From contig CAWIHK010000005.1 in NCBI GenBank assembly GCA_963835935.1, positions 186,467 through 250,466 on the forward strand: DNA of 64,000 nt. The letters are read 5' to 3'. The stretch comes from Ignavibacteriota bacterium (GTDB lineage Bacteria; Bacteroidota; Ignavibacteria; UBA10030; CAVZMI01). Numbering within the stretch: the first letter of the stretch is position 1; each line of letters starts with the position of its first letter. The notes under the pieces are model-generated. The model saw nothing but the letters and a program-made list of their open reading frames with translations. It searched no databases and was not told the DNA's origin. A program made the translations under genes and the position numbers. Shown here one piece after another: positions 15,061-38,336 of this stretch.

Positions 15061-15134
15061 GACCCCGTAGCTCAACTGGATAGAGCAACAGCCTTCTAAG
15101 CTGTAGGTTACGCGTTCGATTCGCGTCGGGGTCA
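15061..15134 (+). tRNA. tRNA-Arg(UCU)
   Basis: GACCCCG/CGGGGTC acceptor stem, ACAGC-CTTCTAA-GCTGT anticodon arm, GTTCGATT T-loop; CCA not encoded. Confidence 0.95.
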
Positions 15135-15220
15135 CAAGAGTTTGAAGAAAAAAAGTAAAAGTAAAAATTAGAAGATGTGAGAAGGTTTTTCATTTCTTTT
15201 TAATTTTTCCTTTTTACTTG

Positions 15221-15252
15221 TTCAACACGGTGACCATAGTTCAGTTGGTTAG
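15221..15252 (+). repeat. Duplicate of tRNA-His leader and 5' end (31/32 identical to 15363-15394)
   Basis: TTCAACAC/T-GGTGACCATAGTTCAGTTGGTTAG present at both positions. Confidence 0.9.
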
Positions 15253-15370
15253 TCCCATTCCGACTGAACTTCGTGATCCACCAAACGAAGTTCATAGTCG
15301 GAATGAGGATCCGCCGAAGGCGGAAACGCCTGCTACGATGCTTTACGAAAGCATTATTCGGATTCAACAT

Positions 15371-15445
15371 GGTGACCATAGTTCAGTTGGTTAGAACGCC
15401 AGATTGTGGCTCTGGAGGTCGAGGGTTCGACTCCCTCTGGTCACC
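15371..15445 (+). tRNA. tRNA-His(GUG)
   Basis: 8-bp acceptor stem with G-1:C73, CCAGA-TTGTGGC-TCTGG anticodon arm. Confidence 0.95.
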
Positions 15446-15494
15446 CAAGAGAATGCAGATTTAAGATTTAAGATTGAAGATTTGAGATTGAAGG

Positions 15495-15865
15495 GTGGAG
15501 AAACGCCATAATAAGGCCGAGGATCTTAAATCGAGAACAAAAAAGTTTGCACTCTCAATCATTGGAGTGTCAGAAAATTTACAGAAGAGTACTTCTTCCG
15601 AGATTCTGAAAAAACAATTAATTCGTTCCGGAACATCCGTCGGAGCGAATTATCGGTCAGCATGCCGGGCAAAGTCTCGTGCGGACTTTGCAGCAAAGAT
15701 ACGAATCGTGCTTGAAGAAGCCGATGAGACCAATATTGGTTGGAGTTGCTCTTTGAATTACATTTGATTGAAGAAAAAACTTTCATGGAGTTACACAAAG
15801 AAACGGATGAATTAATCTCAATTTTTGTGTCATCTGCCAAGACTGCTTCGAGGATAGAAAAATAA
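15495..15865 (+). pseudogene. Four-helix-bundle protein (TIGR02436/IVP-like), 1-nt frameshift
   Basis: KQLIRSGTSVGANYRSACRAKSRADF...EEADET; adding one base near 15730 restores QYWLELL...ELISIFVSSAKT to TAA 15865. Confidence 0.85.
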
Positions 15866-15902
15866 TATTCACCATTCTTCAATCTGCATTCTTCATTTTC
15901 TA

Positions 15903-15975
15903 GTCCCCATTGTCTAGTGGCCTAGGACATCGCCCTTTCACGGCGGTAACACGAGTTCAAATCTCGTTGGGGACA
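15903..15975 (+). tRNA. tRNA-Glu(UUC)
   Basis: GTCCCCA/TGGGGAC acceptor stem, CTTTCAC anticodon loop, GTTCAAAT T-loop. Confidence 0.95.
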
Positions 15976-20300: not shown

Positions 20301-20935
20301 TAAAGTTCCTGCCGTTGTCAGCAATTGGACAGTATGGCAAGTGGGCAGTTACCATTAATACAGACTCAGTAACCACGAAGAGCCCGAACGTAAGCTTCAC
20401 AGTTATACCGCGTGATAAATATTATAACGTGACCACTAAGGACACGGTTATTGTCAATATCACGACAAGCTTGTCAAGTGGAATACTGAATTTTGGTTCG
20501 AACCCGAAAGTAATCGTTGGCCCGACAACAATCACCGGTCCTTTGACAAATGCTAAGGGCAATCCTACACTACAGGTTTCGGTGTTTACCAGTGATAACT
20601 CACATCTCTATGCTGCGAGCGCGATTAAGTCACTCGTAGTAGTTGGTGTAGAAAATCCACAAGAGTTGCCGAAATCCTTTGCATTGAATCAGAACTATCC
20701 TAACCCGTTCAATCCAAGTACAGTTATCAGTTACGATTTGCCGGTTAAAGGCGATGTAACTCTGAAGATTTATGATGTTCTTGGAAGAGAAGTAGCTACA
20801 TTAGTGAACGAGAAGCAGAACGCTGGTTCTTACAAAGTGACCTTCAATGCTAGCAAGTTGTCAAGCGGTGTATACTTCTATCAGTTACAAGCTGGCAGCT
20901 TCAGCAGCGTTAAGAAATTGATCTTGATGAAATAA
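17393..20935 (+). CDS. Large secreted Ig-repeat surface protein with T9SS C-terminal sorting domain
   Basis: Signal peptide; Thr/Ser/Ala/Val-rich; recurrent D-x-Y-G-N-like motifs; C-terminal QNYPNPFNPSTVISY...KKLILMK. Confidence 0.85.
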   Translation: MLKTRFGFQKVGWMPLLLSVLLIGALGISTAYAAGAGVTFLKGDTTYIPLQHTKTTYGDSAKYKLANITVVETVAGNLIATATDSVQIKPPANYTFVTDSVVTITASPVGGLKIDTTGFAALGIVQTSQTTVKLKMKNYISFMISTVSSGTADTLTISGLYLQSAQTAANFDSTTAAYIAFSQKGIGANSANLSKLIALPGAYNKIAMIQDPAGEYYAGENDITAIIKLEDAAGNAVVSGSVIPNVKAVLNGTSTQGNGTLSGTTTVTRSDRKDSVTYTAMAYTKAENIQLVFTAPGNTLTSGELHIYPGDPANISVSLLSGKDTLTVDQTVSYTLTVTDQYYNPVLDDWIIDANEATPHGAVISLSGETGQSPFTSLSGQLSATFAPSKYFVGLDTIVFTSSSYDGKVTKSHNLKSPTIKISGATQLQPVLITHGAIGGIIVDYSNDVNNATVTEAIGAGKQIYARAFLRDTYGNPIDFTSPAASTFTISGKLGKSTSLGTPGLTNAIVESGYPNTVKTAVGIAIPYTISTNVRAEVKENNIKSNGKAPKVLTSTLLPDSILVASNGYNLTLTIQNRSDIPAKLSATATTGDSSLVASLYATSLTVTDTVWDQYGNLCNDPGAVKVSPLESAYDIFASTSGFAKFVRAKDTTAADTLLPSAGVVTRTVSPSTVSGADNVVLVAASSSSLTKSTPIWVTPAAFAKIAITPKKDTTAIAGQTVTFNVEKQDQYGNHIDLGLAGGNLRGHLPSTTKPDSASVAADSAALSADTVSTGSNRGGVVTISKRATAGKAGVASVGGTLVATFPFTTYVAGADTQKVYATIGAYSDTALVRSAATGSLSSFKIEIAAADSIHHAGDVVTITVTAQDAASNRIYTYISGGQKLVLNHTGVKAITTADSTFYFTYIRNHKGVVKAGDTLTVNGNSIPDTVFVQGQAKFSLHKFTAEDSINTVSISTVGGAFKATSASGVKFLPLSAIGQYGKWAVTINTDSVTTKSPNVSFTVIPRDKYYNVTTKDTVIVNITTSLSSGILNFGSNPKVIVGPTTITGPLTNAKGNPTLQVSVFTSDNSHLYAASAIKSLVVVGVENPQELPKSFALNQNYPNPFNPSTVISYDLPVKGDVTLKIYDVLGREVATLVNEKQNAGSYKVTFNASKLSSGVYFYQLQAGSFSSVKKLILMK

Positions 20936-25618: not shown

Positions 25619-27691
25619 TTATTTTTTGGCTGGATTGAATATCCACACACAGGTATCACGAATAGTCTGTTCTCCACTTAAAGAACGTACTTCGATCTGA
25701 TTTTTCCCTGGCTTCAATTTTACATCTTCCCACAAGAATACATAATCCTGCACGTTCCCTTTTTTACCTTGTGAAATTCCGTTTACAAATAATTCCACCT
25801 CTTTTAAATTTGAATAAACCTTTGCATACGTAGACGGTTCGGTACGATCGACAAACCGGCGGCTTGTAATATAAAGTGTCGGCTCGTTCGACCAGTTCGC
25901 TTTATAAAAGAAAAATGCGTCTTTCTTTGTCTTACGATCGTAAGTGACAAGCCCTTTGTCGTTTCGTCCTGGAATCGCTCCTTCATGCCGAGACGAACTT
26001 GTGAAATCGAACATGTTCCACACGAACGTTCCCCAGACAAACGGCCGTTGTTTCATCGCAGTCCATGCAGCTTCATGAACCAATGCCTGCCATTCTTCCG
26101 GATGCCATTGACCGTCGGTCTTCGGTTGTGCAGGATTTAGTTCGTGTTGAGTTGTATTTGCCCCCGCCCCATACTCGCTTACACAAAGGCCCCCATTTCT
26201 ACTTATAAATCGTCCGCTATCGAGTATGCGGCTAAATTCTTCTTTTGTTCCCCATCCGGGATACCAGCCAGAATAAATGTTCCAGCCGAGGAGATCGGGA
26301 ATTTTGTTCATCTGTTTTAAAACATCATTAGATGTTGCTGCAATTGTTGGTCGAGTTGGATCCTCACCATTTGCTACAATTTTCAAGTCCAGCAGTTCAC
26401 GGTGCGGATCGGGGCGTCCAGGCCATAATTCATTGAACAAACTCCAGACGAATATCGAAGGATGATTCACGTTCTGTCTGATCAAATCAAGTAATTGATT
26501 GCGCGAAGTTTCCTCGAATTGAGATGAAGGATTGATCTCGTTTACCTGTGGAAGTTCCGCCCAGACAAGAATTCCTGCAGTATCGCAAAGACTGTAAAAA
26601 TAACTGCTATGTTCGTAATGCGCGCAACGAATTACAGTACAGCCGATTTCTTTGACTAGTTCAATATCCTCTCTCATGTCGGTCTTGGAAATCGCCCAGC
26701 CTTTATTCGGCCGATCCTGATGACGGTTTACGCCGTGAAGATGATACGGTTTTCCATTCAGAAAAAATCCTTTGTCAGGATCTACACGATAATAACGCAA
26801 ACCGATCGGCTGCTCGATTTCATCGAGCACAACGCCGTCTTTTGTTTGCAATTTTGTGACCGCTTTGTAAAGGAAAGGATCCTGGCGGCCATTCCATAAA
26901 TGCGGTTTGGATACAACTAGACGAATTGAATATGGAGCTGTTACTTCCGGCGTGACGCTGATTGGTTTATCAAATTTCGAAATTATTTTCCCTGAATTTT
27001 CAACAACGAATGCAGATAAAACAAGATTTTCTGATTTTTTCGTAGTATTCGAAATCCATGAAGTCACATCAAGCACTGCTTCTTCATCGTTAACATAGGT
27101 TTGATACCATACAACTCCATCTGACGCGTGATCTGTAAGCGTAAAATCGATCTCGTCGGTCGTGATTAAATATACAGGCCGGTACAATCCGCCGAAGATG
27201 TCGAAGTCACCACTCAATGGCGCAATATCCGGTTCCGGTGCATTACTTACGCGCACAGCGACTATATTTGTGCCAGTGGATGATAGATTTTTCGTCACTT
27301 CAAAACAAAATGCACCGAAAGCGCCGCGATGCTGTCCGATAAGTTTTCCATTCAAGTAAACATCCGCCACTGAACCTGCAGCTTCGAATCGAAGAAAATA
27401 TCGTTTCCCTGCTTTAGGTATTCCTACATTTAAATCAAGACGATACCAACCGGGGCCACGATAATAATTCTTTCCATCCTGCGCGTCTTCCCATCCCCAG
27501 TCATGAGGAAGAATAACACTTTGCCAATCGTGATCGTCGAACTGCAATTGCTCGGCGCCTGAAATCTCGCCGAGTTTAAATCGCCAGCCATTTTCGAGTT
27601 TTAAGATTTCACGTGGATTTGCATTGCAAGTCGAGAACAAAGAAAATAAGCCAACAAAAAAAATGAATAACTTATAATTGTTAGTCATCAT
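25619..27691 (-). CDS. Glycoside hydrolase family 2 (beta-galactosidase-like)
   Basis: HGVNRHQD, IRCAHY, WSLFNE, VSEYGAG motifs. Confidence 0.9.
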   Translation of the reverse strand: MMTNNYKLFIFFVGLFSLFSTCNANPREILKLENGWRFKLGEISGAEQLQFDDHDWQSVILPHDWGWEDAQDGKNYYRGPGWYRLDLNVGIPKAGKRYFLRFEAAGSVADVYLNGKLIGQHRGAFGAFCFEVTKNLSSTGTNIVAVRVSNAPEPDIAPLSGDFDIFGGLYRPVYLITTDEIDFTLTDHASDGVVWYQTYVNDEEAVLDVTSWISNTTKKSENLVLSAFVVENSGKIISKFDKPISVTPEVTAPYSIRLVVSKPHLWNGRQDPFLYKAVTKLQTKDGVVLDEIEQPIGLRYYRVDPDKGFFLNGKPYHLHGVNRHQDRPNKGWAISKTDMREDIELVKEIGCTVIRCAHYEHSSYFYSLCDTAGILVWAELPQVNEINPSSQFEETSRNQLLDLIRQNVNHPSIFVWSLFNELWPGRPDPHRELLDLKIVANGEDPTRPTIAATSNDVLKQMNKIPDLLGWNIYSGWYPGWGTKEEFSRILDSGRFISRNGGLCVSEYGAGANTTQHELNPAQPKTDGQWHPEEWQALVHEAAWTAMKQRPFVWGTFVWNMFDFTSSSRHEGAIPGRNDKGLVTYDRKTKKDAFFFYKANWSNEPTLYITSRRFVDRTEPSTYAKVYSNLKEVELFVNGISQGKKGNVQDYVFLWEDVKLKPGKNQIEVRSLSGEQTIRDTCVWIFNPAKK

Positions 27692-30002
27692 TTTCCTTTT
27701 ATGTAATCTTCATGTGTGATTATTTTTGGGAAATTATAGAGGTTTCTTATTTGCTCCGGTGTGTTATGCGTATCCACAAAATCACTCCAGATCATAAACC
27801 ATGACCACATCGGTTGCTGTTCAAGGATTTCCGGAGTGGGTACTTCACCAACTTCACCGAGTGTGATAATTTTACCCTTTCCCAGTTTGTAAAGTTGATC
27901 GTGATGACTTTGCCGATAATCGTCATGATAAATATCGGTTGCCAGAACGTCAACATATTCCGTCCCCGGGAAAAAATCCTTGTAATCATAAGCTTCATCG
28001 TCGATCAATTGTCGCGGCGCATTTGTATTCCAAACCCATAATAAGTTATTAAGTTTATGGAAGTTGATAAATCGATCGTACAACATTCTATATAAGCCGG
28101 CAGATCCATTTAGACCTTTTCGGTTCCCCCACCAAAACCAAACGCCGTTCGCTTCATGATATGGCCGCCAGAGAACAGGCACGCCAAGTATTTGCAATTC
28201 ATTCAGATATTTTGCAATCGTGTCAACCTGCTCCTGCCAGCGTGAATGTAACTCAGTACCCGGGGTTAATAACTCGTTCCATTGCTTATCTGTCAGCTTA
28301 CCTTGAATGCTTTCATTCCAAGCAAACGGCGGATCGTCCTGCGGCCGGCATGCCACATCAAAGTGATGATGTAGCCTTCTTTGTATTTGTTATAGACCTC
28401 CTGGACTAAACGTTCTGAATAATTCACTACATAATAATTGACGAAATCAACCCCGTATATTTCTGGAGATTTGCCGGTCAGTTCTTTTACACGATTGATA
28501 AATGTATCCGGCCGCGTAATATAATTATGATGGCCGGCGATTATATTTTTTCCATTGATGGAATAAAGGTAATCCAATAATTTTTTTGCTTCAGGTGTGG
28601 CATTTTTATTTACGGGATCATAATGGGCGGGATCATAGGATATTGTCCCTCTCTCCAATCTATTGATGCAATTGATGAGTGCCCGAGACGTATGATAATT
28701 CGCTTTCCAAATTGTCGCTTTTGGAGCCTGCCGTTGTTCCGGTTGAATATCAATTCCACCCCAATACCATCCGCCATGCTCACTATCGATTACATATTGT
28801 TTACAATAATCCCATTGCTTGCAAAATTTTTGATAGTAGTTAAGTTCGTCTTTCGGAAAGAGTTCAGACATCATTAAAAATGAGTTTAACGCTTCGGCTT
28901 GCGACCACCATTCTTTTGTGTTCCTCACGATGGTTGGTTGTTGTTTTCCACGAAAATAATATCCTCCATCAAACAAGCCGCCATGTTCATTATCAAACCC
29001 GAACTTTATGACATGGTCGACCATCTTCTTTGCGATCCTCAACGTCGTCGAATCATTTTTCAATCCAAGGGTCTCCGACGCTTCCAGCATTAGATACGCG
29101 GTTTCAACATCGTGACCGAATGAAATATAATCCAATAATAAATTATTTTGTCTGACTGATGCACTTGAATCTCGGTATGAAAGATGCTTCCAGTCACGAC
29201 TGAAATATAATTTCAAATATTCCTCATCCGTTATCATTATATCGCGGATGACTTTCAAGTGTGAAGCGAGACGTTCCTTCAAAGTCGAATCAGGCCAGAC
29301 TTTGTAGAGTTCCGTTAAACATTCGAGAATATGAATCGCCGAGTTATAATCTTTCGGAGGAGTGCCTTGATATCCATGGATGAACGGTTTTCCATTACGC
29401 GAAAGAAATTGAAAATAACCGCCGTACTGTGAATCATAACTATATTTATCGAGCCACCGAAACGCATCCTGCGCAAACCGCAAAGCATTCGTATCGCCCG
29501 ATGTTCTGTAATATGAAGCCAATCCGTAAATCGCAAAAGAATTTCCGTATGCGCTTTTAATAATTTTCCCATTTTCAGGAATGGGATCACCCTCGCGGGT
29601 CACAAGATCATAAAAGCCGCCGAATTGCCGGTCCCACATTTTATTCCGCAGAAATTCAATTCCATGCACGGCAATATTTCGGAGTGAGTTGTCTGTTTGA
29701 TAAAACATCGCCGCGTTCGATGCAGCCCAAACATGGCGCGCTTGCGTCACAATCATTTTATTTTGCCGGCCTTCCAACTGCCATTGATAATTTATATCGC
29801 TGAAATAACCGCCATGAAGAGAATCAATACACAAAGGATAGAATAGTGCAAATTCTTTCGAAAGAACATTTTGCATTTCTGCCGAGATCGAGTCGCGGTT
29901 TGCTTGGATTTCATTCAGAATTGTCTTCGAATAAGAATTAATAGAGGCTACAAGAAAAAACAAGCCGACTATCAGAGCATATTTCCTAAAAGAAAGATTC
30001 AT
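27688..30002 (-). pseudogene. AGE-family (cellobiose/mannobiose 2-epimerase-like) domain fused to GH26 mannanase; frameshifted at ~28345
   Basis: Upstream ORF has AGE motifs (VTQARHVW, NSAIHILE, SFGHDVE, EWWSQAE, WKANYH) then GH26 N-part; downstream ORF has WRPYHE, DIYH, LGEVG; junction restores MWHAGRPQDD with +4 nt. Confidence 0.8.
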
Positions 30003-30130
30003 AACATTCCACCTTGTTGATAGATCAGTGATAATCTCGTCTTTTCCTGCCACGAAGCATCACCCTTCGACGCGGCTCATATTAAAATTTAGTGTACTAT
30101 TATCTGCTTTCGATTACTTTAAATAAAATT

Positions 30131-32133
30131 GTAGAGTAGGACAATAGTGCAGTGATGTACAGACTCTGTGAGCCCCGACCGTTTCTTTCCTTTCGGAAAA
30201 GTGTCCCTCTCAAGCAAGCCATCATCCTGTTATCCTATTGAACCCTCGTCAAACCGTACGTGAGGTTTTCCCTCATACGGCTTTCCTGAAAGCTTAACAT
30301 ACTACGGTGAAAGTCGTGCAACGTGGTAATCATTGAATAGTCCAAGTTGACCATAAAGATATTCCGACGTCAACTTACCCCATCCATATCCACGTCTCCC
30401 TCTACGTCGCCAAACAACATGCCGAATCCGTTTATTAACATAATTCGCCAGATCGTGCAATGCCGATGATCCATGTCCTAACCTGAAATATCCCATCCAT
30501 CCACATAGATAGCGGTTCAGATTATTCACCTGCTCCTTCACTCTTAGTGGAATTGAATGGTGAACATATTTCCGTACTGTAGCACGGAAGCGTTCCTGAC
30601 TTTTCGGATTTGGGTACACCAGTATCATACGAGTGCCGGTCTTTCTGCTTCTGGCATTATGAAATCGGAATCCTAAGAAGTCAACACTCATTCCTGTATT
30701 AAGCTTGAGTGTGCGTGTCTTCTCAGTGTTCAGGTGCAATCCCAGCCGCTCCAAATAGTGCTTTAGGATACCTACACCCTCTTCCAGATTCCGTTGTGCC
30801 AGAATCATCATGTCATCTGCATACCGTACAAGATGGATGGAACCATTTCTGATTGTTCCAAGTCCTTCTCGCTTGAACGCATGATCTACTGGATTCAAAT
30901 AAATATTTGCCAGTAACGGACTGATAACTCCTCCCTGAGGTGTGCCTTGTTTACTCTGGCGATGCTGGCCATCTTCGACATAGCCACAGCTTAACCACTG
31001 ATGTATTACTCGTAGAATCTCGCCATCCGATATTCGTCGGGCTACAAGTTTCATAAGTTTGCCGTGATCTACCGTGTCAAAGTATTTCTCCAAATCTACA
31101 TCGTAAATTTCAACACATCCCCAGTTCAGATATTTGTATATTTCCCGTATCGCATCATGCGCGCTCTTCTCCGGCCTGAATCCATAACTTGAGTCGGCAA
31201 AATCCGACTCAAAGATCGGCTCCAGCATAAACAAGAACGCTGTCTGAATCACACGATCACGAATGGTTGGTATGCCCAATGGACGTTGCTTTCCATTCGC
31301 TTTCGGAATATATACTCGCCGTACCGGTTTCGGCACATAACGACGTTCCTTCATCTCAAGCTGAAGTTCTGCAAGATAGTCTTCGATTCCCTTCTTCTCA
31401 ATATCCTCGAAGGTCTCTCCGTCTACCCCGCTTGCTCCACCATTGGCTTTCACCTTGCGATAAGCTTCAGCCAATACATCTGCACGATAGGTCTTATCGT
31501 ACAAACTGTAGAACCGAAACCTCGGCTCCTCTTTCGCCTTTGCATGCAACTTCTTCTGAAACTCCCGAAGCCACTCTGTGTTTGGTAGCTCACGCAATAC
31601 ACGCTCCTTTGTTTCTTTGTAAGTTTTCTTTCAGCAGGAGCCCTTCCCTCTGTCGTGTTTCCACGTCTTCATCGGTACTACGACTCCATCCGCCACCCTG
31701 CCATCTCCCCTCTCTTTCGTTTCCTTATAAGAGGGCTCTTCTCCATCTTTCTTTTTCTTCTGGGACAGCGAGGGCTTCCCAAGTCCCATTCCTGTTCTTT
31801 CCAGCCATGTCGTCGCTCATACCCCGGAGGTGACACATGATCGTATTCTCTCTATTCTCGATCAATTGTTAATGACTTCGCCCATAAAATAGGGACTCGT
31901 CCACCTCAACTTGTCTTTACGAGGCTACCTGTGCCTTCACATATTGTTACGACCTGGTTGTTTGCATAGCACCCTTTAAGGTTACATTGTCGAGTCGCTT
32001 AGCATGAAACCGTTTCCCGTCTCATACCGACTCCTTGCTACGTGGCGTTCAGAGTTTCACCACGGTCAGGACTTAGAGTAGAGCGCCCTCCCTCTTCACC
32101 TGACAAGATCAGGAATAGTTTACCTTGGCGCTC
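30131..32133 (-). mobile_element. Complete group II intron (2003 nt)
   Basis: 5' GAGCG at 32133; domain V AGCCGTATGAGGGAAAACCTCACGTACGGTT (~30250-30284); 3' end CCTACTCTAC at 30131; EBS1 loop ATTTTAT complementary to the last 7 exon nt. Confidence 0.9.
30302..31597 (-). CDS. ltrA: Group II intron reverse transcriptase/maturase, no endonuclease domain
   Basis: GASGVDG, RPLGIPTIRDR, GTPQGGVISPLLANIYL, RYADD, domain X; no C-terminal HNH. Confidence 0.95.
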   Translation of the reverse strand: MRELPNTEWLREFQKKLHAKAKEEPRFRFYSLYDKTYRADVLAEAYRKVKANGGASGVDGETFEDIEKKGIEDYLAELQLEMKERRYVPKPVRRVYIPKANGKQRPLGIPTIRDRVIQTAFLFMLEPIFESDFADSSYGFRPEKSAHDAIREIYKYLNWGCVEIYDVDLEKYFDTVDHGKLMKLVARRISDGEILRVIHQWLSCGYVEDGQHRQSKQGTPQGGVISPLLANIYLNPVDHAFKREGLGTIRNGSIHLVRYADDMMILAQRNLEEGVGILKHYLERLGLHLNTEKTRTLKLNTGMSVDFLGFRFHNARSRKTGTRMILVYPNPKSQERFRATVRKYVHHSIPLRVKEQVNNLNRYLCGWMGYFRLGHGSSALHDLANYVNKRIRHVVWRRRGRRGYGWGKLTSEYLYGQLGLFNDYHVARLSP

Positions 32134-33655
32134 ATTTTATCAGCACCATTTTCTTCATCGAATTGAAGCCGCATGCTTCCAGCCGATAAAAGTATATGCC
32201 TGAAGCAAAACTGCTAGCATCGAATGTTATCGAATAATTCCCCGGATTAAGTCTGTCTTCGAGAATCATTTTTACTTGTTGGCCTAAAATATTATAGACA
32301 ATTAACTTTACATTTGACACCTTTGGCAGCGAAAAATCAATCGTTGTTGTCGGGTTGAATGGATTTGGATAATTCTGTGATAACGAATACTTCGTTGGTA
32401 GAACTCCAGATGCAATTTCTTTTATATCTGTTTGCAGGTCAATGGTTACATCGTCTGGATAATTATCATACATGTAATTCAAAGATAACCAGGTATCCGC
32501 CGCTGAATCAGTCGGTCCGAAATCTGTCCACGACCATACTATTGCACCTGCATATCCATTCAGATACAAGAAGGGAAAAAGATCGAGACTGGCCACTCCA
32601 TTAGTCGCTTGCATACTAAATTCAGCGAGAACAACTGCTTTGTCCAGTTTCCAGTGTGAACAAGGAAAAAGGAATGGGCAATAAGAAGCGCCGTTCTGAG
32701 AATAATAATGTACACAATAGAAATCAAGCGTCCCGAGAGAATCCTTTCCGGCAGCTATCAACCGATCATCTCTATAAAAATTAGAATTCGAGAGGGGCTC
32801 AATTTCTTCAAGATATGTAAGATATTCATCGACGGTCAGAATCGTCCTGTGGTGAAGATTAAATTCATGTACGATTTTCAATTTTTGTTCAGGAGAGAAT
32901 GTATTGAAAAGTTCCGATCCACGAGTTGAAACTTTTGCAACAACATTCACATCGGTCAATGTTTGAAAAGTCACCGCACCGCTTGTAACAAGAGCTTTCG
33001 GATCGGTTCGATGAATTGCACCAGCCATTAAATTAACAGAGCGCTGAATACTTGCCATTGGAACGTGATCACGTCCGCCCCAGCCATATTCATTTGAGAT
33101 ACCTTCCGGTTCGTTAAAAATTTCCCATGCAACGATAGCGGGATGTCCTTTTACGGAATCCACCATTGGAATCAACGCATTGCGGATATAGGCGTTGGTA
33201 TAGGCTGTATCAGTCAGCAGTTTAGCATTGCGGTGCAACCTCACAGTATCCAACTCTGACTGATTCAGCATATCATGAGACCACAAGCATAGAATCAATC
33301 CAACGTTATCCCGCTGAGCCTGATCCAGTATTTGCTTTAAATCTGCAGTTGCAAAAGATCCAGGCCCTGTCACATATCCATCTATATCGAAATCAGGAGT
33401 ACTCGCCCCATTTGTATTGAGCCAAAACCGCATAACATTCCCGCCATTGCCGCTCACGTTTTGAAATTCAATATCAAATTGGGTGAGATCGGGTGCGCCT
33501 GGTCCAATATCATTGGCAAAATTTACCCATGCAATATTTAATCCGCTTATAAATATGTTTTTACCTGCAAAATGTATTCTGGATTGAGAAGTACTAATTT
33601 GTGGTACGATCATCGATAATATTAATAATAATAAAATTATTTTGACAATGTTCAT
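32132..33655 (-). CDS. GH5 endo-mannanase-like enzyme with T9SS sorting domain
   Basis: NIAWVNFANDIG, WEIFNEPE, HYY, LAEF; C-terminal QNYPNPFNP...KKMVLIK. Confidence 0.8.
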   Translation of the reverse strand: MNIVKIILLLLILSMIVPQISTSQSRIHFAGKNIFISGLNIAWVNFANDIGPGAPDLTQFDIEFQNVSGNGGNVMRFWLNTNGASTPDFDIDGYVTGPGSFATADLKQILDQAQRDNVGLILCLWSHDMLNQSELDTVRLHRNAKLLTDTAYTNAYIRNALIPMVDSVKGHPAIVAWEIFNEPEGISNEYGWGGRDHVPMASIQRSVNLMAGAIHRTDPKALVTSGAVTFQTLTDVNVVAKVSTRGSELFNTFSPEQKLKIVHEFNLHHRTILTVDEYLTYLEEIEPLSNSNFYRDDRLIAAGKDSLGTLDFYCVHYYSQNGASYCPFLFPCSHWKLDKAVVLAEFSMQATNGVASLDLFPFLYLNGYAGAIVWSWTDFGPTDSAADTWLSLNYMYDNYPDDVTIDLQTDIKEIASGVLPTKYSLSQNYPNPFNPTTTIDFSLPKVSNVKLIVYNILGQQVKMILEDRLNPGNYSITFDASSFASGIYFYRLEACGFNSMKKMVLIK

Positions 33656-33874
33656 ATTATTCTCCTTAATTTATTTCTAATACTTTTTTAATATCAACAT
33701 TTAATTTTGTACCAGAATCAAAAGTTATTTTTTAAATTCAGTTTTTCTTTAATTAAAGTCAATCTTTGTCGCCTATATCTTCCATTGGATAAATCAATCT
33801 CGCATCTTCTTCTGCAATTATCCCGACGATAATTGCCAACAGCTATAATAAAACAATGTTCCAGAGACTTTGAG

Positions 33875-35419
33875 TCATTTTTCAACAACCATCTTTTTGC
33901 TATCCCTATGACTGCCGGCAATTAGATGATAGAAATAAATGCCTGAAGATAGTTTACCTGCGTCGAATGTAGTAACATGATGTCCGGCAAATTGATGGTC
34001 ATTCACAAGGATGGCGACACATTGTCCTAGAGTATTGTAAACTTTTATCTGCACATTGATCGGTTCATTCAGATCGTATTCAATCGTCGTAACAGGATTG
34101 AACGGATTCGGATAGTTTTGGTACAGGCGAAATCTCTTAACCACAGGTCTACCATAAACGTCAATTGAATCTTCTAAATTCGACATCATGATAGAATATT
34201 TTTTAAAAATGCTAATTGTAGATGTATCAGTATCGTAAACAGAATTTAATCCTTGCGCCTCCATCGGCGGATCGCAGACAAAAGGATCGCCAGGTCGCCA
34301 TCTAAAATTGGAATTTGGACTTCGTCCCTCTCCTCCCCAACCCCAGAAATTCGAACCCGCGATCGGCGCGCCTGCAGCAGCGCTGTCGTAAATCAACTTC
34401 AACAATTCGTTGAAATATTGATCACGATATGTAGTCGGACTTCCGGGATTGAATGCCGAAGAATCTCTCTGCAAACCATACTCTTCCATTGCCAACGGTT
34501 TGTTCAATGTTCTTGCAAGAGCAATGTGTTCTTGTATATAAGCTTTCGCCTTCACTAAAGCCGACGAATAGCTTTCTGCACCGGTAACCGGGTGCATCGG
34601 ATCGTACCATCTCCAGTTGTACGCCCAGAGATGGATTGTTGCGTAGTCGATGAACAAACTTTGATGTGCACTTATGAAAATCGATTCCGAACCATTCGAT
34701 CCGATCGTTCCTTCACTACCGGTAGTTACAAGATGGTTCGGGTCGATTGAATGGATATAATAAGAAGTACTGTCAATCCAATTATCAAATATTGCAGTGC
34801 TTCCAGCCGGCCGGGGTTCGTTGGCGAGTTCCCACGCCATGATCGCCGAATCCTCATAGTAACGTAATCCTGAAACAGTATTTACTCGATTGACAAGATC
34901 GAAGATATATTCCCTGTAATCGGTGTTTGCCAGACTATTTTGATAAAATACTGAACCTTTAACCGGGAACCATGTTTCATATTGTGACATTCCTCCGGAC
35001 CATGTCCAGAAATTATTCAAAAAAATGACTGCATGTAAATTTCTTTTGTTCATTTCCGAAAGTAAATAATCCAATCCGACTAGAAGCGAATCATCATAAA
35101 CACCAGGTGATGTCTGGATCGCCGGTGTAATTGCGTCAGATGCTTTTGATGCTTCCGATGCTCCGAGAATTCTTAGATTATTAATTCCCGCATCTCTCAA
35201 ACGATCGAGTTCGCGAAGAAGCCGTTCGCGATTTCCAGTGACGCCTGTCGAGCCGAGATAGCATCCGTACCAAAAATTGGCGCCGACAAAATAGTACGGT
35301 TTCCCATCATACACGAAATGTGTTCCATTGATTTGAATAAATCCAGATTGGGAATGAACAGATGAAACTAAAAAAATCAGAATTACCCAGAAACGAATTT
35401 TATTAAGCTTATTTTTCAT
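33875..35419 (-). CDS. GH5 (subfamily 7-like) beta-mannanase with T9SS sorting domain
   Basis: NNFWTWSGG, WELANEPR, IHLW, MEEYG; CTD QNYPNPFNP. Confidence 0.9.
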   Translation of the reverse strand: MKNKLNKIRFWVILIFLVSSVHSQSGFIQINGTHFVYDGKPYYFVGANFWYGCYLGSTGVTGNRERLLRELDRLRDAGINNLRILGASEASKASDAITPAIQTSPGVYDDSLLVGLDYLLSEMNKRNLHAVIFLNNFWTWSGGMSQYETWFPVKGSVFYQNSLANTDYREYIFDLVNRVNTVSGLRYYEDSAIMAWELANEPRPAGSTAIFDNWIDSTSYYIHSIDPNHLVTTGSEGTIGSNGSESIFISAHQSLFIDYATIHLWAYNWRWYDPMHPVTGAESYSSALVKAKAYIQEHIALARTLNKPLAMEEYGLQRDSSAFNPGSPTTYRDQYFNELLKLIYDSAAAGAPIAGSNFWGWGGEGRSPNSNFRWRPGDPFVCDPPMEAQGLNSVYDTDTSTISIFKKYSIMMSNLEDSIDVYGRPVVKRFRLYQNYPNPFNPVTTIEYDLNEPINVQIKVYNTLGQCVAILVNDHQFAGHHVTTFDAGKLSSGIYFYHLIAGSHRDSKKMVVEK

Positions 35420-35420
35420 T

Positions 35421-38336
35421 TTATTCCTTCGAAGGAACTGCCTGACGTGACAAGACTTTCTCTGCTTGAATTTTTAAAACAGCATCCATCAAACCGGCAG
35501 AAGCAGCAGTCAATACTATATCGCCTGGTTGCTTGTCCGATTGTATTATAACTTGTGCCAGGCCATTAAACACCTTCCGCTTCCAAGTACCGGCCAGTTT
35601 GACGAATTGTACAATACCAGGATCCGTATTCAAAATATCGTATTGAAGTCTTTTTTTCAACGGAGAGCCTGCAGCGGCAAAAATATTTTTTCCTTTACGG
35701 AGTATCGCATGATCGAGTTTATAAGGCCGGACGGAATCGTCACGTTTAATCTTTCCACTAATCAAACATCCGTTAATATACACGGCTTGTTCTTCGCCTA
35801 AACTTTTCGGCCATAGTGTTACTTCAGCGCTTTCATCAAAATCGAGCAGATTGAATGTACCGCGAATCACGACTGTCTTTGCCGAATCATTTGCTTTAAC
35901 ATTATAATTGCCTTGTTCATCGAGTGCTTTTGGCCATGACGAATCATCAGCATCGAATTTTACATCGGGATTTGGTTCCGTCAATAGCTCAACACGAGCG
36001 CATAGGTTTTCAATTTTTAACTGTTGAACGCTCTCAATGTACCTGTCGGATTCATGCGACGATGGATCACCGTTTCCTACTCCAATTATTTTCCCGGGCC
36101 CCTTAAGCGAAAATGAAATTTCATTTCCTGCAATAGGCACAATTCTTCCTAAAGAATCAACCACTTGAATTGTAATCACCGACACGTCTTCGCCATTTGC
36201 CTTTATAATAGACCCGCCATCGGGAATAATCTTGACTGCGGCCGGTTCGCCTGCCGTTTCAATTTTATCGGTTATGACCTTCTCATTATTTTTATAACCA
36301 TAAGCAATTAAAGTACCCGGTTCATACTTGACAGGCCACTCCAGATGCGAATTATTTTCCATCCGTTTTCGTCCCAGGCTTTTCGTGTTTAAGAAGAGCT
36401 CGACTTCATCACAATTACTGTACACTCGAACATCTATCTGTTTTTCTTCATGCCAATTCCAATGCGTCGCGATGTGCAACACAGGTTTATTACCCCACCA
36501 TGACTTGAAATAATAGAAAATATCCTTCGGGAATCCGCAAACGTCAAGAATTCCGTATTGCGAACTTACCGCAGGCCAGCCATAAGGATTCGATTCACCT
36601 CGATAATCGAATCCGGTCCAATAAAAAAGTCCGGATAAAAAAGGACGGCTGGTATAAAACTTCCATCCAAACTCTGCACTCGGATTATCAGCCGCAAGAT
36701 TTTTCGGAGCCATGTGGGCTTGAGCATCGTCTGTTTCATATATACCGCGAGTACCTATTGTGTTGGTTTCTTCACTGCCGATCCCTGCCTGCCATGGAAA
36801 TTGTCGATGATGCTCGTCGATATTTCCATGTACGATATAATTAAATCCGGCGACTTGGCTCACTGTCCCGATTCCATCATCCCATCCGCCACTGCTCGCA
36901 ACTGTGAAGGCACGTGACGAATCGAGATGCCGAGCAAAATTCTGCATCGTCGCGGTAATGCGCGCACCTTTGATGTTGCCTTCGATTGCCCATTCTTCAT
37001 TTCCTAATGACCATAGAATCACAGAAGGATGATTGCGATCCCGCTTTATAAACTGTTCGAGGCATTGCAAATGCTCTTCGTTAATTCCCATCAGCCTGTT
37101 CTCATCGAGAACGAGCATGCCGAGACGATCGCACGCATCGAGAAATTCCGGTGTGGGAGGATTGTGCGATGTTCGAATTGCATTACTACCCATTTCTTTT
37201 AATCGCCGGACGCGGTATTCTTGCAGAGCGTCGGGGATTGCGGTACCAACACCGGCATGATCTTGATGATCACAAGTACCAAGAATTTTCAAATGTTTTC
37301 CATTCAAGAAAAAACCTTCATTCGGATCGAAACGAACCGTTCGGATTCCGAATACGGTTTCATACGCATCGATCACTTTGCCATTCGATCGAATGATTGT
37401 TTGAAGCTTATACAGATACGGTTTTACGACTGACCATAATTTAGGTTTGGTAAGATTGTAGGAACTGAAATATTCCTGCTGATTTCCGGAACCAAGCGAA
37501 ACATGTTTTCTGGAACCTGAAGTTATTGTCTTGCCTTCGGCATCGATGATGTTTTCTTCAATGTCAAAAACAGAATTATTCTTCGATTCATTTACAACGG
37601 TAGTGCGGACGGTAACGCGAGCGATGCGATTCTTCAATTCTGTGGTGATAAACGTTCCATGCCTGGCAACATGAAGCGGAGCTGTTTTAGTAAGCCAGAC
37701 GTGTCGATAAATTCCAGCTCCTTCATAAAACCAACCTTCTTCCATTGTTGCATCGACTCGAACAGCGACTACGTTATCGCCGCCGTAATTCAGATAGTCG
37801 GTTATATCATAGCTGAAACTGGAGTAACCGCTATGTTCCGTCCCGAGATAAAATCCATTTACCCATACAATTGAATTTCGGAAAACACCGTCGAATTCAA
37901 TAGAGATGCGTTTACCGAGATCCGATTCGGGAATCGAAAAAGTTTTTCGATACCATCCTACACTGTTCTGCGGGAAGTCGCGTCCGATTGTTTTGTATCC
38001 ATGACTATGTCCACCGCGTGAGTCGAAGAGAAGTTCTACGCACCAATCATGCGGGAGATCGAGTTTCCGCCAGGCGCGATCATCGAAGTCTTTCGACGCA
38101 GGCCCGTCTCCATATCCCGCTTTGGTAAAGTAAGAAAAATATCCTGTTGCGTGGTTGAAGTCTTTCCCGACGTCGAACGAATGGCCAAAGGCAAAGCGCC
38201 ATCCCGGATCCATTAGTAATCGTTCGCGTCCGATAACCGGTTTGTTTGTTTGATTTGCTTGTTCTTGGGCGAAAATAGATGAAATTACAGGAACAATGAA
38301 CATACTGATAATCAAAAAACTCTTAATTTTATGCAT
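35421..38336 (-). CDS. Glycoside hydrolase family 2 (beta-galactosidase-like)
   Basis: GWFYEGAGIYR, HQDHAG, RTSHN, WSLGNEE, WTGFDYRGE motifs. Confidence 0.92.
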   Translation of the reverse strand: MHKIKSFLIISMFIVPVISSIFAQEQANQTNKPVIGRERLLMDPGWRFAFGHSFDVGKDFNHATGYFSYFTKAGYGDGPASKDFDDRAWRKLDLPHDWCVELLFDSRGGHSHGYKTIGRDFPQNSVGWYRKTFSIPESDLGKRISIEFDGVFRNSIVWVNGFYLGTEHSGYSSFSYDITDYLNYGGDNVVAVRVDATMEEGWFYEGAGIYRHVWLTKTAPLHVARHGTFITTELKNRIARVTVRTTVVNESKNNSVFDIEENIIDAEGKTITSGSRKHVSLGSGNQQEYFSSYNLTKPKLWSVVKPYLYKLQTIIRSNGKVIDAYETVFGIRTVRFDPNEGFFLNGKHLKILGTCDHQDHAGVGTAIPDALQEYRVRRLKEMGSNAIRTSHNPPTPEFLDACDRLGMLVLDENRLMGINEEHLQCLEQFIKRDRNHPSVILWSLGNEEWAIEGNIKGARITATMQNFARHLDSSRAFTVASSGGWDDGIGTVSQVAGFNYIVHGNIDEHHRQFPWQAGIGSEETNTIGTRGIYETDDAQAHMAPKNLAADNPSAEFGWKFYTSRPFLSGLFYWTGFDYRGESNPYGWPAVSSQYGILDVCGFPKDIFYYFKSWWGNKPVLHIATHWNWHEEKQIDVRVYSNCDEVELFLNTKSLGRKRMENNSHLEWPVKYEPGTLIAYGYKNNEKVITDKIETAGEPAAVKIIPDGGSIIKANGEDVSVITIQVVDSLGRIVPIAGNEISFSLKGPGKIIGVGNGDPSSHESDRYIESVQQLKIENLCARVELLTEPNPDVKFDADDSSWPKALDEQGNYNVKANDSAKTVVIRGTFNLLDFDESAEVTLWPKSLGEEQAVYINGCLISGKIKRDDSVRPYKLDHAILRKGKNIFAAAGSPLKKRLQYDILNTDPGIVQFVKLAGTWKRKVFNGLAQVIIQSDKQPGDIVLTAASAGLMDAVLKIQAEKVLSRQAVPSKE

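Follow-up and report, generated by a model that had tools for sequence, protein, structure and literature searches.

The survival of group II introns in bacteria is ascribed to their hiding in intergenic DNA or in other mobile elements. Introns of class C (IIC; GsI-IIC, B.h.I1 and O.i.) insert after a terminator hairpin and T-run, as well as at attC sites, through an exon-binding site 1 (EBS1) of 3-4 bp. The endonuclease-less RmInt1 of Sinorhizobium meliloti (class D / IIB3) reaches high copy number in a multi-copy mobile element, ISRm2011-2, where it uses EBS1, EBS2 and EBS3, interrupts an open reading frame (ORF) and follows a lagging-strand-template bias at replication forks (general knowledge; PMC12584367 discussion). 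Introns of the IIB1 start/stop-codon lineage (Avi.groEL, EcKTE56.groEL) insert into a stop codon, regenerate it and are active in Escherichia coli (Gomes et al., 2025, PMC12584367); the lineage is also credited to Michel et al. (2007, Biochimie; as cited in PMC12584367) and Ferat et al. (2003). Here we describe a 2003-nt group II intron in a 64,000-nucleotide stretch of an Ignavibacteriota bacterium genome (assembly GCA_963835935.1, contig CAWIHK010000005.1, positions 186,467 to 250,466; the window in what follows). It is very probably an active copy of a mobile intron from a distinct, monophyletic Ignavibacteria lineage, whose home site is the stop codon of genes for proteins with a type IX secretion system (T9SS) type-A sorting domain and which would splice from their transcripts. 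As stop-codon introns are already known, the novelty lies in the specialised lineage itself, in the type of its target, the tail of a multi-copy protein family, and in its co-adapted 5' end; the literature searched has no paper that connects T9SS sorting domains with group II introns.

The genome (4.06 Mb in 6 contigs) contains seven copies of the intron, which are 100% identical over exactly nt 1-2003 with differing flanks, identity stopping at both ends, and the boundaries of the element are thereby fixed. On the minus strand of the window the junctions read ...ATG GTG CTG ATA AAA T/GAGCGCCAAGG...CCTACTCTAC/AATTTTATT (a slash marks a splice or insertion point throughout), the 3' exon beginning AATTTT. 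At all seven sites a K or R codon is followed by T/GAGCG...CTAC/A(A/G), within the stop codon of seven different T9SS type-A sorting-domain genes, and the hosts are different signal-peptide proteins that all end ...YFYRLQAGxFxxTKKxxLxK. The occurrence of seven identical copies at distinct sites argues for recent mobility. The initial annotation of the window had placed the intron inside the stop codon of a glycoside hydrolase family 5 (GH5) gene and had the stop regenerated with the protein unchanged. The common ends of the seven copies and the host ORF, in which TGA is made of exon T and intron GA, bear this out: the intron separates the first base of the stop codon from the second, the filled site reading AAA TGA and the ligated or empty site AAA TAA. 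As UGA is assembled from exon U and intron GA, the last residue of the host protein is the same with and without splicing. The empty forms of all seven sites would be TAA or TAG, and in the intron-free alleles whose comparison had been suggested, namely the orthologues of the GH5 host gene in two other genomes of the same family (~65% identity), the site reads ...CTT CTT AAA/TAA TAT.

We then asked how many such targets the genome offers. A census with a home-made hidden Markov model (HMM), counting ORFs in which the domain reaches the C-terminus, gave 135 sorting-domain gene ends, 68 of them with at least six contiguous EBS1 pairs (7 occupied, 61 empty), and the T9SS translocon gene SprA is encoded in the genome. 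Genome-wide, 16,859 positions are EBS1-compatible when a 6-bp match to the intron-binding site 1 (IBS1), with G-U allowed, and a purine at position +1 are required; since the sorting-domain stops account for 68 of these, the chance of finding seven of seven copies there is about (68/16859)^7, roughly 2e-17. Together with the recurrence across the clade described below, these numbers support the idea of the initial annotation that sorting-domain ends serve as a multi-copy target, and the end of the 1180-aa gene that it had singled out is indeed an empty EBS1-compatible sorting-domain stop (Table 1). Other sorting-domain ends reading AAA TGA GCG... were rejected as chance look-alikes, the whole genome having only eight domain V motifs. 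A related ORF-less intron of 742 nt lies elsewhere in the same genome (locus L008, G000:C1:314006-314747); it is 72% identical to nt 1-538, has a near-identical domain V and an EBS1 of ATCTTAT, and is preceded by ...TD-stop-stop-KLVLFR plus T and followed by AC, a site resembling the degraded terminus of a sorting-domain pseudogene.

The anatomy of the element is that of a complete group II intron (Table 1). Domains V and VI match Rfam Intron_gpII (RF00029) at 30131-30285 with 47 bits (gathering score 40), and the domain I core recognised by Rfam begins at intron nt 59, the entire 5' part ahead of the ORF measuring 536 nt. The intron-encoded protein (IEP) is encoded in domain IV; it scores 409 bits against TIGR04416 (cut-off 300) and is matched in Pfam by RVT_1 (2.8e-37) and GIIM (1e-12) only, with no DNA-binding/endonuclease (D/En) domain in its 431 aa. 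Its closest solved structures in the PDB are reverse transcriptases (RTs) of IIC introns, the best being the GsI-IIC and E.r. RTs, and it matches IIC RTs at 1e-66 compared with 5e-49 for the CL-type T.el4h RT. The 5' end departs from the GUGYG consensus by one base, at position 2 (GAGCG). This deviation notwithstanding, the other features leave no doubt that the element is a mobile, ORF-containing bacterial group II intron.

The departure from GUGCG had been remarked upon in the initial annotation and is real, as GAG is the 5' end common to the whole clade; its sisters start with GUG (GUGCG). A version of the filled site with U at position 2 would read AAA UGU GCG CCA AGG UAA and add four residues, CAPR, to the host protein, whereas the A2 version gives UGA at once. 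The T9SS sorting signal reportedly needs its native C-terminal residues, according to work on RgpB of Porphyromonas gingivalis. We infer that the GAG start fits selection for silent insertion, and A2 would be an adaptation to it. The lineage also offers a natural experiment on whether an A at position 2 of GUGYG is tolerated. At locus L027, a nested member of the clade (5' junction near 1922), the sequence is ...ATCAAAT-A-GUGUGCC, with a canonical GUGUG after an extra A, and the 3' exon starts GA; the filled site is UAG and the empty site UGA or UAG, hence stops under either boundary, the EBS1 register favouring T/AGUGUG. At another locus (L083, near 1878) the junction is AAAT-C-GAGCGCC, where the extra C removes the stop and the host ORF runs into the intron.

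To place the intron among its relatives we collected IEP homologues, which form a sharply bounded group of 58-82% identity in Ignavibacteria, Melioribacteraceae and 'Bacteroidota' metagenome-assembled genomes, the next sequences reaching at most 42%. The few contigs binned as other phyla are likely to be mis-binned, because host genes there carry T9SS tails. In an IQ-TREE phylogeny of IEPs, computed without reference sequences for classes A, D, E, F and g1-g4, the 21 close sequences form one clade (support 100/99) on a long stem, beside an acidobacterial intron and beside or among IIC-type IEPs. Nearly all clade junctions with flank read ...K-K-M/L-x-L-x-K/R + T/GAG(C/T)GCC...CTACTCTAC/AA, AG or, twice, GA, and the 5' end is GAGYG or GAGCA in 22 of the 23 members found through the IEP. 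Genomes from other families and orders of Ignavibacteria carry this junction as well.

Insertion sites of homologues, which the initial annotation had proposed to tabulate, proved to be sorting-domain stops in about 21 of 23 junctions with flank in the IEP-defined clade, in five of the six new sites from a phylum scan, and in 48 to 53 of 62 metagenome junctions among the matches listed. The phylum scan used the 5'-end pattern on 401 genomes and gave matches in 7 genomes, all of the same class; about 300 genomes of other classes gave no match to this pattern. The metagenome scan, with a pattern of the 5'-end type, gave at least 80 loci, from which we excluded 7 without flank, 3 intron-intron tandem junctions and 8 false positives (matches preceded by C or A, with neither IEP nor domain V); the upstream ORF tail matches the sorting-domain HMM at 48 of the remaining 62 true junctions and is sorting-domain-like by eye at no fewer than 5 more. 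The check for homologues in unrelated contexts, which would have counted against the proposal, spoke for it, as only the more distant IIC-type relatives lie elsewhere, after terminators; in four sister introns (L045, L047, L052 and L088) that match Rfam D1D4-3, a terminator hairpin and T-run lie directly before GUGCGCC.

Many relatives lack an ORF: 13 of the 35 elements with both ends among the metagenome matches listed are ORF-less derivatives, mostly of 0.7-0.8 kb and at the same kind of site. Mini-introns of ~0.47-1.1 kb in sorting-domain stop codons were seen at metagenome loci L101, L102, L108, L118, L136, L137, L151, L159, L168 and L169, and also at L017 and L011; they are probably non-autonomous and owe their mobility to full-length relatives acting in trans. 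Three metagenome loci (L117, L125 and L149) contain head-to-tail intron-intron junctions, ...CCTACTCTAC/GAGCGCC..., as expected if a second copy enters an occupied site at T/G, because +1 may be G. For annotation, the introns and their ~0.7-kb ORF-less derivatives lie directly after cargo genes, where they are easily taken for 3' untranslated regions or intergenic repeats.

These features set the lineage apart from the systems described above. Like the groEL introns, it is a mobile intron inside a termination codon whose first bases rebuild the stop and leave the host protein unchanged, and tandem double insertions occur in both (PMC12584367; here in metagenome loci). In contrast to them, it uses dozens of genes per genome rather than one housekeeping gene, and enters between stop bases 1 and 2 instead of 2 and 3 (UAA to UAG). 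The groEL introns have a canonical 5' G start, a 300-700-nt subdomain Ia and a IIB1/CL-type affiliation, whereas here a non-canonical A2 is needed, domain I starts at nt 59 without a 5' insertion, and the IEP, devoid of an endonuclease domain, comes nearest to class C. With class C, its nearest IEP relatives (35-42% identity), the lineage shares the missing endonuclease, the lack of a detectable EBS2, the G-N-GCGCC start and a generic multi-copy genomic feature as safe haven, but its EBS1 comprises 6-7 bp, no hairpin lies upstream, the target is the end of a coding sequence, and domain I is larger (Rfam D1D4-6/-4, compared with D1D4-3 in the IIC sisters). With RmInt1 it has in common the absence of an endonuclease and high copy number in a multi-copy target, which here consists of host genes and their stop codons rather than a mobile element. 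Such introns are not placed in any class in PMC3552965, PMC3753933 or PMC8919778. Beside terminators and attC sites (IIC) and the stop of a single housekeeping gene (groEL), a whole secreted-protein family, with its conserved final codons and its stop, would be a third kind of safe haven, providing dozens of transcribed, harmless sites per genome and tying intron spread to the T9SS secretome of a class of the Fibrobacteres-Chlorobi-Bacteroidetes (FCB) group.

Target recognition was examined through covariation. The pairing of EBS1 with IBS1 over seven of seven positions, as given in the initial annotation, was corroborated in 66-87 intron/target pairs: when all domain I windows were compared with all exon offsets in 87 pairs, EBS1 was the top covarying element, and in 66 unique pairs variant EBS1 loops are matched by variant targets in a compensatory manner (EBS1/IBS1: ATCTGAG/CTCAGAT, with 7 Watson-Crick pairs, ATCGCAT/TTGCGAT, ATTTCAA/TTGAAAT, ATTTCAG/CTGAAAT, ATTTAAT/ATTAAAT and ATCGTAT/TTACGAT). 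These compensatory changes prove the EBS1 assignment. The candidate EBS2 of the initial annotation, GGCAC, found no support: it pairs 5/5 with GTGCT at the window copy and 2-4/5 (0-2 of them Watson-Crick) at the other six identical copies, and shows no covariation. Because full pairing is confined to the window copy and covariation is absent, we regard this pairing as coincidental. The +1 base is A or G, the counts of 3' exon starts across the clade being AA 23, AG 18 and GA 2, and it could pair with the U just 5' of EBS1 or with some EBS3 U.

The existence of 16,859 sites compatible with EBS1 (~8 bp) means that a further recognition determinant is needed. Sorting-domain ends are near-invariant in having C at -24, A at -22, AA at -19/-18 and, as the middle base of hydrophobic codons, T at -6, -9, -12 and -15, and adding these positions to the IBS1 pattern reduces the 16,859 genomic sites to 132, of which 57 are sorting-domain stops. 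Contacts of the IEP with distal 5'-exon positions are established in Ll.LtrB and RmInt1, and the extra determinant probably consists of IEP contacts with the codon-periodic T/A pattern between -9 and -22. In these data the T periodicity did not separate from sorting-domain coding, because the sites without an HMM match are mostly decayed sorting-domain tails. It is tempting to speculate about a "protein-family homing", in which the ribonucleoprotein (RNP) would read, instead of a fixed word, the codon-periodic DNA signature of a conserved C-terminus (T at -6/-9/-12/-15, AA at -18/-19 and the stop) via a determinant other than EBS2, be it IEP contacts or a coupling to the stop codon or the terminating ribosome, the change from U2 to A in an otherwise invariant GUGYG solely rebuilding the stop. 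We put this forward tentatively, as a possible but somewhat doubtful proposal; if it is true, the element would have no phenotype at dozens of expressed loci in each genome. Five of the seven 5' exons contain a distal segment, in three cases the Q-A-G codons CAGGCAGG, that can form a long-range stem with the Leu codons just 5' of IBS1 (CTTGC/CTGCT type; GTGCT in the window copy), which is not significant in comparison with empty sites.

The cycle that we propose would start from the DNA encoding the tail ...K-K-(hydrophobic x4)-K/R-stop, a near-invariant AAR AAR NTN NTN NTN NTN ARR T/AR present at ~135 gene ends. The 7-nt EBS1 loop would pair with the last two codons and the stop-codon T, +1 would have to be a purine, and integration between stop bases 1 and 2 would follow from the EBS1 register and this purine. 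The GA start of the intron would then complete UGA with the exon U, and splicing would restore UAA, UAG or UGA. Lacking a promoter, the intron would be transcribed as the tail of the cargo messenger RNA (mRNA) and would splice as a lariat via the bulged A of domain VI, after which the RNP would reverse-splice into further sorting-domain gene ends by retrohoming. In an endonuclease-less intron, complementary DNA synthesis would most likely be primed from nascent lagging-strand DNA at replication forks. The sense strand of the intron lies on the locally G-rich (leading-type) strand in all 7 copies, while the same holds for 37 of the 61 compatible sites that are empty (one-sided Fisher test, p = 0.04), and this bias agrees, thinly, with what such priming predicts.

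Several observations weigh against this account. We infer splicing, lariat formation and the in vivo junction from the anatomy, the identical copies and the empty sites, and the A at intron position 2 is non-canonical. The strand bias reaches only marginal significance. A minority of copies, mostly ORF-less, is found elsewhere (L011, L228 and some of the metagenome loci). There is also a recognition problem, as the seven to eight base pairs of EBS1 and position +1 are too few for the observed specificity: no second covarying segment emerged when domain I windows were compared, first in 23 pairs and later in 87, with the exon between -8 and -26, an IIC-like upstream hairpin was not found (fold z-scores of occupied and empty sorting-domain ends are alike), and the sequence logo of occupied sites is that of empty sorting-domain ends. 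This shared logo, the lack of a determinant beyond EBS1 and +1 and the existence of ectopic copies, few as they are, would fit an intron that inserts promiscuously wherever EBS1 pairs (~17,000 sites), with selection retaining only transcribed, harmless insertions at sorting-domain stops. The seven copies are 100% identical, however, and hence recent, and the ~16,800 other compatible sites, with many neutral intergenic positions among them, hold none; the pattern moreover recurs in dozens of independent genomes, and we consider promiscuous insertion followed by selection improbable.

That pairing alone is insufficient also invites the idea that targeting acts at the level of RNA or translation, the RNP reverse-splicing into cargo mRNA, or being guided by the ribosome that terminates at the sorting-domain stop, with the product then fixed in the DNA through reverse transcription and recombination. 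Insertion invariably falls in a stop codon, be it TAA, TAG or TGA, and not in a fixed word, and the authors of the groEL stop-codon work likewise raise guided retrohoming and ribosome association (PMC12584367). Against it, the G-rich-strand bias fits DNA targeting at replication forks, and the stop codon and periodic T are conserved DNA features of the family that do not require recognition of RNA. Group II introns that have been studied retrohome overwhelmingly into DNA, and we give this route slightly less credence than promiscuous insertion. The sorting domains themselves are modular, multi-copy and alike in their ends, so that copies might have spread with the module through duplication, domain shuffling or gene conversion, without mobility of the intron. 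Yet identity ends at the first and last bases of the intron, each copy has its own sorting-domain DNA before the intron and its own flank after it, the host proteins show no relationship beyond the domain, and EBS1 covaries with its target across the clade; passive spread with the module is therefore almost certainly wrong. The reading that we prefer is that of a mobile intron homing to sorting-domain stop codons.

Table 1. Features of the intron, its insertion site and its host gene (positions in the window)
Feature	Position	Strand	Basis or remark
Complete group II intron, 2003 nt, 5' GAGCG ... CTAC 3'	30131..32133	-	Ends common to seven 100% identical copies; Rfam RF02005 and RF00029 above gathering thresholds
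Domain I core, Rfam group-II-D1D4-6 (RF02005)	31812..32075	-	62.4 bits (gathering score 49)
EBS1 loop ATTTTAT in domain I, CCC/GGG stem, conserved U just 5'	31884..31890	-	7/7 with IBS1; top covarying window
Candidate EBS2 GGCAC of the initial annotation	31931..31935	-	Present; unsupported as pairing element
IEP, 431 aa, RT (YADD) and maturase X domain, TTG start after GGAG	30302..31597	-	Pfam, TIGR04416
Domain V, AGC triad hairpin	30249..30285	-	RF00029 alignment and fold
Domain VI, internal insertion, bulged branch-point A at 30137 (7 nt from 3' end)	30131..30247	-	Fold and RF00029 alignment
IBS1 ATAAAAT, Ile-Lys codons and stop-codon T, last 7 nt of 5' exon	32134..32140	-	7/7 with EBS1; compensatory changes in clade
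Filled-site stop TGA: exon T (32134), intron G1 (32133) and A2 (32132)	32132..32134	-	Host ORF end (32132..33655) and sequence
First two bases of 3' exon, AA	30129..30130	-	Restore TAA after splicing or in empty site; all 7 copies then AA or AG
Host gene: secreted GH5-like glycoside hydrolase, 507 aa, signal peptide and T9SS type-A C-terminal sorting domain (aa 429-504)	32134..33655	-	Pfam Por_Secre_tail (PF18962) and Cellulase, TIGR04183
Empty EBS1-compatible sorting-domain stop ATGAAAT/AA of 1180-aa gene	20927..20935	+	Opposite strand, locally C-rich (lagging-type)

The host gene belongs to a series of same-strand glycoside hydrolase genes (25619-38336, minus), probably a cluster for the utilisation of mannan/hemicellulose, that comprises a GH2 gene, a GH26/epimerase gene, the GH5 gene with its sorting domain, a second GH5 gene with a sorting domain and another GH2 gene. 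With the 2-kb intron in place, ~2.08 kb lie between the first GH5 gene and the gene downstream. The latter (27688-30053, minus), which lies just downstream of the intron, encodes an N-acylglucosamine/mannobiose 2-epimerase-like domain fused to a GH26 mannanase, and its GH26 domain is divided between two ORFs that overlap and differ in frame (28293-30053, profile 1-98; 27688-28356, profile 112-309). The split is a frameshift, reflecting either a pseudogene or an assembly error. Elsewhere in the window, a cluster of three transfer RNA genes lies at 15061-15975 on the plus strand (Rfam tRNA, 60-71 bits).

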